A stretch of 64,000 nt of DNA from Escherichia coli. Lineage in GTDB: Bacteria; Pseudomonadota; Gammaproteobacteria; Enterobacterales; Enterobacteriaceae. Of the stretch, positions 19,464 to 21,116 are shown in pieces. A program made the position numbers and the translations under genes. The DNA lies in the NCBI RefSeq assembly GCF_041886205.1, contig NZ_CP169029.1; one strand, given 5' to 3'. Each line of letters begins with the position of its first letter. Positions within the stretch are counted from its first letter, which is position 1. The notes beneath the pieces were generated by a model that did not search any database, was not told where the DNA came from, and saw nothing but the letters and a program-made list of their open reading frames with translations.

Positions 19464-21116
19464 GTGGTTATCTACGCTTTTAACAAACGATTGATGGAAT
19501 ATTTTATGAAAGGGAAATCTGCATTAACTCTTCTGCTCGCTGGTATATTTTCGTGCGGCACATGCCAGGCGACAGGGGCAGAAGTGACGAGTGAATCTGT
19601 ATTTAACATTCTTAATTCCACGGGGGCAGCAACAGATAAAAGTTATTTATCGTTAAATCCAGATAAGTATCCTAATTATCGTCTTTTGATTCACTCAGCC
19701 AAATTACAAAATGAAATAAAGAGCCACTATACCAAAGACGAAATTCAAGGATTGCTAACATTAACAGAAAACACACGAAAGTTAACGTTGACGGAGAAAC
19801 CCTGGGGAACGTTTATTCTTGCTTCTACTTTCGAAGATGACAAAACAGCGGCAGAAACCCACTATGATGCTGTCTGGTTGAGGGATAGTTTATGGGGCTA
19901 TATGGCATTAGTATCAGATCAGGGAAATAGTGTAGCCGCAAAAAAGGTTCTGCTCACCCTGTGGGATTATATGTCTACGCCCGACCAGATTAAGCGGATG
20001 CAGGACGTCATTAGCAACCCAAAACGACTGGATGGAATTCCCGTGCAAATGAATGCTGTGCATATCCGATTTGACAGCAACTCCCCCGTGATGGCAGATG
20101 TGCAGGAAGAAGGCAAGCCGCAGCTGTGGAACCATAAACAAAATGATGCTTTAGGTCTTTACCTTGATCTCCTTATACAAGCAATCAACACTGGTACTAT
20201 TAACGCTGAAGATTGGGAAAAAGGTGACCGATTAAAGTCGGTTGCGCTGCTGATTGCTTATCTGGATAAAGCCAATTTCTATGTTATGGAAGATTCCGGA
20301 GCATGGGAAGAAGATGCCCGATTAAACACATCTTCCGTTGCTCTGGTGACCTCTGGACTGGAACGTTTGTCAAACCTACTCTCGAAGAAAGACTCTGTTT
20401 TTGTCTCTGATTTACTACGCGAAGCTAAAGTCAATGAACTGGATGAAACTCTTTCAACAACGAGGTTGAACCACCTCATAGATAAAGGTTATGAAAGAAT
20501 AACGTTACAGCTTGATTTAGGGGGAGAATCCCCAGGTTATCTGGAAAAAGATAAACATTACAGAGAAGCCGATGCGGCTTTACTTAATGTTATTTATCCT
20601 GCAAATCTTTCAAAGATAAACACCAGAAGAAAAGAGTAAGTTCTAAAAATAGTTAAAAAACTAGCAGGTCCGTATGGTATAAAAAGATACGAGAAGGATA
20701 ATTATCAGTCGGCAAATTTTTGGTTCAATGATATTAAAACCGATACCGATCAAAATTCGCATACAAAAAGAGAAAAGAGCTTCATTCCATCAACAGAAGC
20801 AGAATGGTTTTTTGACTCATGGTATGCAAAATCAGCAGCAATTGTTTATAAAGAATCAAGAAAAGAAGAGTATTTGAATGACTCAGTGCAATTTATGAAT
20901 AGATCATTGGCCCAAATAACAGGCGAGAATATGATTGGTGCAAATGGCAGGAGCGTACCAGAAATGGCACTTCCCGAAAGCTATAACTATATCCACAAGT
21001 CGGGAACTTTGCATGAAGCGCCAAGCCCTATCATTCCGCTAAATTGGTCGAAAGCTTCAATGACTCTCATGTTGAAAGAGATGTCCAATCTTATCAATGA
21101 TGAGGGAATTAAATAG
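19464..21116 (+). pseudogene. glucoamylase-like (GH15 / phosphorylase-kinase-like) secreted protein interrupted by an in-frame TAA at 20637-20639
   Basis: Signal peptide; GAWEE motif; the same frame stays open and protein-like on both sides of the single stop. Confidence 0.5.

Follow-up and report, generated by a model that had tools for sequence, protein, structure and literature searches.

A rare premature stop codon in the GH15-like gene pkgA (ygeQ) and a separate, common 8,736-bp eiv deletion in an ETT2 locus of Escherichia coli

The window analysed here is a stretch of 64,000 nucleotides of Escherichia coli DNA (RefSeq assembly GCF_041886205.1, contig NZ_CP169029.1), along which xdh, actS, glyU, a 13-kb island, pkgA/ygeQ, ETT2, yqeF and kdu follow one another (Table 1). 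ETT2 is the second, decayed type III secretion island of E. coli; its genes epaO-S, eprH-K, ygeG-K and yqeH-K are present, and the window is collinear with the O157:H7 locus. Compared to the annotated ETT2 of strain 6EVA, the window is 99.93% identical over 24.4 kb.

Table 1. Features of the window, in window coordinates
Feature	Position	Strand	Evidence or remark
glyU, tRNA-Gly(CCC)	6032..6105	+	ARAGORN
Integrated island, 13.1 kb, at the glyU 3' end	6111..19235	.	38-bp direct repeats 6073-6110 and 19236-19273
TIR-domain protein of the island (TIR_2+DUF3298)	7248-8387	-	
Resolvase of the island	9081-9656		
DEAD/DEAH helicase of the island	10642-12582		PADLOC 'DpdF' model, E 1e-269
AbiTii protein of the island	16997-17914	-	
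Tyrosine integrase of the island	17935-19152	-	
pkgA/ygeQ, GH15-like gene, 536 codons, here a pseudogene	19506..21116	+	PGAP CDS at the equivalent position in two loci (L001 and L002)
Predicted Sec-type signal peptide (MKGKSALTLLLAGIFSCGTCQA)	19506..19571	+	Sequence inspection; possible lipobox FSC or CQA cleavage site
W267-E268-E269, predicted GH15 general-acid motif, upstream of the premature stop	20304..20312	+	Invariant in 34 sequences
Premature TAA, codon 378 (ancestral Gln, CAA/CAG)	20637..20639	+	C>T transition at 20637
P490-E491-S492, candidate general base, in the 3' part that is no longer translated	20973..20981	+	Invariant in 34 sequences
8,736-bp deletion junction, 13 bp past the pkgA stop	21121..21129	.	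Imperfect microhomology, CATAATGAG versus CACAATGATG
eivJ 3' remnant, last 39 codons and stop (120 nt)	21130..21248	+	tblastn, EivJ residues 151-189 at 21129-21245, 95% identity
epaO (SctQ), frameshifted	21208..22194	+	tblastn to the O157 protein, three pieces in different frames; NCBIfam NF006018
epaS, split	23897-25016		ORFs 23995-24627 and 24624-25016

The tRNA gene glyU does not adjoin pkgA but lies 13 kb away from it, because an island has been inserted between the two. The direct repeats that flank this island correspond to the 3' end of glyU, and both copies are matched by the same O157:H7 segment in blastn (positions 11841-11878 of the O157:H7 locus, L003). According to Pfam and PADLOC results, the island codes for an Endonuclease VII-like protein in addition to the integrase, resolvase, helicase, AbiTii and TIR-domain proteins of Table 1. 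Elements related to the island, inserted at this site or elsewhere, possess capsid and HNH genes and differ in their end cargo, which consists of DUF3800 and AbiJ in the relatives present in E2348/69 and NCTC11023. At a coverage of 80% or more, the version found here has no counterpart among complete E. coli genomes. Overall, the island, which the initial annotation passed over and which carries no eiv gene, resembles a satellite or PICI-like island in which the anti-phage cargo can be exchanged.

Among 5,426 complete E. coli genomes, 4,036 contain the pkgA region, with identities of 95-100% and under the labels 'ygeQ' or 'glycoside hydrolase family 15 protein'. The gene corresponds to ECs3736 and ECs3737 in O157:H7 Sakai and to b2863/b2862 in K-12, and represents the last gene of ETT2, at the glyU end of the island (PMC3977695). 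It is described as 'phosphorylase kinase and glucoamylase', as Pallen 2003 is cited in PMC3977695. A literature search on the gene name ygeQ found no functional data. The reading frame had at first been taken from a GTG at 19464; in two near-identical annotated genomes, the PGAP coding sequence begins at ATG 19506, giving 536 codons, so that the GTG is probably not the true start. The protein had also been called secreted. It does possess a Sec-type N-terminus, in which a hydrophobic 10-mer reaches a mean KD of 2.5, and 26 of 34 family members share an N-terminal hydrophobic segment; this region has low pLDDT in an AlphaFold2 (AF2) model of PkgA. As judged from the sequence, the N-terminus resembles a Sec or lipoprotein signal and the protein is probably exported by the Sec pathway, so the term secreted holds in the sense of a predicted signal.

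The frame that runs from 19464 is open up to the TAA of codon 378. Beyond this stop, it remains uninterrupted over another 158 sense codons, until a TAG at 21114-21116 is reached. With the local base composition, which gives a stop probability of 0.067 per codon, an open run of 158 codons would arise by chance with a probability of about 1.6e-5. The frame had been described as open and protein-like on both sides of the TAA, in agreement with our finding that the two halves match one and the same family of single-ORF proteins. Codon 378 reads CAA in both K-12 and O157:H7. In strain 2015C-3121, for which PGAP annotates an intact GH15-family protein of 536 residues, it reads CAG; the TAA of the window is therefore a C>T nonsense change. 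WP_000676929.1 is an example of an intact PkgA.

A homologue search with PkgA returned 252 matches, the best 120 of which are mostly 490-600 residues long, and other bacteria have over 100 homologues of full length, with about 490-600 residues. Homologues encoded by a single ORF are present in E. albertii (76% identity), Yersinia (60%), Commensalibacter, Elusimicrobiota, Bdellovibrionales and others. These homologues bear on whether the locus natively holds two genes, or a split gene with cooperating products, as the annotation of 6EVA might suggest, where PGAP has placed a 377-residue 'glycoside hydrolase family 15 protein' as well as a distinct 61-residue 'hypothetical protein'. Yet every homologue that was sampled, whatever its phylum, consists of one ORF, and position 378 is a sense codon in more than 99% of E. 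coli. Moreover, the cut falls within one barrel domain, and the first possible restarts past the TAA, TTG 20874 and ATG 20931, would leave 78-97 codons untranslated. A native pair of genes is thus scarcely conceivable; the comparison shows the native form to be one gene of 536 codons, and the original reading of a nonsense mutation rather than two genes is borne out by the sense codon in relatives and by the single-ORF homologues. The 61-residue protein of 6EVA, which corresponds to positions 20931-21116 of the window, is the tail of the pkgA frame and hence an annotation artefact.

The distribution of the TAA allele was followed with a 66-mer centred on the TAA codon. Of the 3,654 complete E. 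coli genomes with the region, 18 match this 66-mer exactly and over its full length, a count to be read as an upper bound that is blurred by nearby SNPs and partial matches. The carriers include 6EVA, three 'ST540' assemblies, AR_0061, and isolates from cattle, river and seawater. Over 1,851 nt, a single SNP separates the window from 6EVA, the nearest of them. A sequencing or assembly error in a gene that is intact in the real strain would accord with the rarity of the allele, and with the four single-base indels between the window and 6EVA, three of which lie in homopolymers (A7, A7 and T6 runs) and point to some errors in one of the two assemblies. The TAA, by contrast, is a substitution outside any homopolymer, and the identical 66-mer recurs in 18 independently assembled genomes from different hosts and countries, the closest of which is nearly identical around the site, making an error very improbable. 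The recurrence of the same allele argues that the stop codon is genuine, rare and lineage-specific. It appears to be previously undescribed, in contrast to the rest of the finding.

The initial description of PkgA as GH15-like is upheld by a match to Pfam PF00723 just over threshold, by an (α/α)6 fold and by a W-E-E motif. The Pfam match is marginal: scores of 22.6 bits for the intact orthologue and 26.2 bits for the 377-residue fragment compare with a cutoff of 22, and the match spans only positions 16-308 of the 427 in the profile. No NCBIfam model matches the protein. Sequence search against the PDB gave the α and β subunits of phosphorylase kinase (PhK) as the sole relatives, in an alignment that stops short of the C-terminal catalytic region. 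The AF2 model, built from a 34-sequence alignment, has a pLDDT of 91.1 and a pTM of 0.90, and shows a mostly helical protein folded into an (α/α)6 barrel. Structural similarity search of this model using Foldseek revealed that the GH15-like domains of PhK α/β are most similar (E 5e-11), followed by the glycosidase 5z3a (E 1e-8) and fungal glucoamylases (E 1e-7 to 1e-5), all with a probability of 1.00 and with TMt up to 0.70.

PkgA shares the (α/α)6 barrel and the W-E(-E) motif with GH15 glucoamylases and isomaltose glucohydrolase (PDB 1ayx, 3eqa, 5z3a) and with PhK α/β (PDB 8jfk); however, sequence identity to these structures is only 11-18%, and the query-normalised TM-score is about 0.5. Unlike GH15 glucoamylases, it has neither an N-terminal β-sandwich nor a starch-binding domain, and its sequence is nearer to PhK α/β than to any characterised enzyme. 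W267-E268-E269 of PkgA aligns with the WE of the GH15-like domains of PhK α/β. We take the general-acid glutamate of this motif to be equivalent to E179 of Aspergillus niger glucoamylase. Residue E491 in the P-E-S motif is the best candidate for the catalytic base, as suggested by its conservation.

Translation of the TAA allele gives a product of 377 residues that lacks the last 159, among which are 32 invariant positions of the family. The alignment and the AF2 model place the last four helices of the barrel, a conserved β-hairpin and the candidate base E491 in the lost part. A 377-residue PkgA would thus, according to the model, be unable to close its barrel, and its enzyme function is probably lost. 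As the product is devoid of these helices, the hairpin and 32 invariant residues, the gene is regarded as a pseudogene. A full-length protein could still be made if the TAA were read through or recoded, by a suppressor tRNA or a programmed event. The downstream frame is indeed still fully open, as is also expected for a recent mutation, and we found no supporting evidence for readthrough. Against it, codon 378 is an ordinary glutamine codon in relatives, position 378 is not conserved in the family, and UAA followed by G is an efficient terminator in E. coli. Taken together, these observations leave readthrough with a negligible probability, and we consider the codon to be a true stop.

The same gene is also a pseudogene, at the same position, in K-12 and O157:H7, where its DNA is 97.9-99.5% identical to that of the window, but the lesions differ. 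Instead of the TAA at codon 378, K-12 has a GGA to TGA change at codon 265 together with an IS2 junction after position 20642, whereas O157:H7 has a 5-bp deletion at 20064-20068 (window numbering). The exact 66-mer of the K-12-type TGA is found in up to 947 of 3,670 genomes. In other strains, pkgA is broken by insertions of IS421 or IS2. The IS2-associated ETT2 breakpoint of K-12 (L004 6238-6250, equal to window 20637-20645) lies 3 bp past the codon that is TAA in the window; we rejected a link between the two, since K-12 has CAA at this codon, and consider their proximity a coincidence. Altogether, E. coli has inactivated pkgA/ygeQ repeatedly, by many independent events.

In O157:H7, glyU is followed by pkgA, a GhoT/OrtT-like (ydcX-like) gene, eivF, eivG (SctC, secretin), eivE, eivA (SctV), eivC (SctN, ATPase), eivI, a small ORF, eivJ and epaO, an order that agrees with the initial statement that the eiv genes of a complete ETT2 lie between glyU and epaO. 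Alignment of this intact locus with the window by blastn gave two collinear blocks, L003 11841-13725 at window positions 19236-21129 and L003 22453-25725 at 21121-24390. The blocks skip L003 13726-22461, which means that 8,736 bp are missing from the window and which maps the breakpoints to the junction of Table 1. The microhomology at this junction is short and imperfect, as expected for illegitimate recombination. Lost with the 8,736 bp are the ydcX-like toxin gene, eivF, eivG, eivE, eivA, eivC, eivI and the 5' part of eivJ. The ydcX-like gene (ECs3735, L003 13779-13958), situated between pkgA and eivF, encodes a small membrane toxin of the GhoT/OrtT family.

The claim that none of the eiv genes is present holds for eivF, G, E, A, C and I, and has to be amended for eivJ, of which the 120-nt remnant survives; PGAP annotates it as 'SpaN/EivJ ... 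missing N-terminus'. Apart from this tail, neither blastn nor tblastn with all of the deleted proteins detected eiv sequence in the 64-kb window (E >= 0.1), so no eiv homologue was found elsewhere in the locus. The search covered 64 kb of the genome, and the eiv genes might have moved to another place in it rather than being lost. This is most unlikely, as the junction has the form of a clean deletion whose flanks keep the order of O157:H7, the window has no eiv match besides the EivJ tail, the identical 72-mer across the junction is found in 1,931 of 5,426 complete E. coli genomes, and published isoforms describe the loss of eiv as a deletion. The loss of the eiv genes by deletion also fits the large-deletion form of ETT2 proposed at the outset: the measured 8,736 bp compare to the 8.74 kb of a deletion isoform published in APEC and other E. 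coli (PMC11068852). The window and this isoform share the glyU-proximal ('right') end and the removal of eivF to eivJ, with no material difference between them. Beyond the isoform, the window has the 13-kb island between glyU and pkgA, as well as further small lesions in epaO, epaS and ygeH. The degenerate ETT2 of septicaemic O78, treated by Ideses et al. in 2005, is reportedly of the 8.74-kb-deletion type.

Further damage is seen in the part of ETT2 that remains. The genes epaO and epaS (Table 1) are additional pseudogenes in the surviving export apparatus, and PGAP likewise labels epaO of 6EVA 'frameshifted'. In total, the PGAP flags of 6EVA mark epaO, epaS, eprK, orgA, pbl, ygeF and yqeK as frameshifted or stopped and eprH as split, most of which is common to the window. 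The indels between the two genomes are located in ygeH (31728-33103), in eprK (27912-28646), at 29189 and at 29440. The gene ygeH, coding for a HilA-like regulator, is split in the window and intact in 6EVA, whereas eprK is intact in the window and frameshifted in 6EVA. Either true slippage or an assembly error, in one genome or the other, could account for these indels.

Strain 6EVA, a carrier of the TAA allele, also carries the deletion junction. As 18 genomes have the TAA but 1,931 have the junction, and the nearest TAA strain has the junction as well, the nonsense mutation most likely arose long after the deletion, in a lineage that already carried it. We conclude that the window almost certainly combines a lineage-specific nonsense mutation in pkgA with a separate and common 8,736-bp deletion of the eiv genes. 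In its native form, pkgA/ygeQ encodes a single 536-residue GH15-like (α/α)6-barrel protein with a predicted N-terminal export signal. In the lineage of the window, a C>T change has turned Gln378 from CAA into TAA, such that translation ends after 377 residues. Separately and most likely much earlier, the 8,736 bp were lost, probably by illegitimate recombination between short imperfect repeats, from 13 bp downstream of pkgA to a point inside eivJ. This deletion took the secretin, the gatekeeper, the export gate, the ATPase, the stalk protein and the EivF regulator, so that an ETT2 injectisome cannot be built from this locus.

PkgA has been suggested to be an ETT2 effector that acts on host glycogen (PMC3977695). 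The homologues of Yersinia and Commensalibacter (loci L007 and L009) have no type III genes nearby and are stand-alone genes; the neighbourhood of the Commensalibacter gene includes a GH32 gene and a gene for an EamA transporter. Together with the Sec-type signal, these homologues argue against an effector role. The many independent lesions, the Sec signal and the stand-alone homologues also lead to a bolder reading, which we regard as rather unlikely, namely that PkgA might be a periplasmic or surface glycosidase unrelated to ETT2 and not a type III effector, and that its repeated loss might have been selected rather than neutral.

The identity of pkgA, its habit of becoming a pseudogene and the 8.7-kb eiv deletion are all already known, and the TAA at codon 378 is a further rare allele in an island whose decay by mutation is well documented. 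For annotation, the 377-residue 'GH15 protein' and the 61-residue 'hypothetical protein' of PGAP are to be treated as fragments of a single pseudogene. Among the degenerate isoforms of ETT2, the strain has the most common one, and, as the secretin, the ATPase and the export gate are missing from it, any ETT2 phenotype in this strain would come only from the regulators or the remaining parts.
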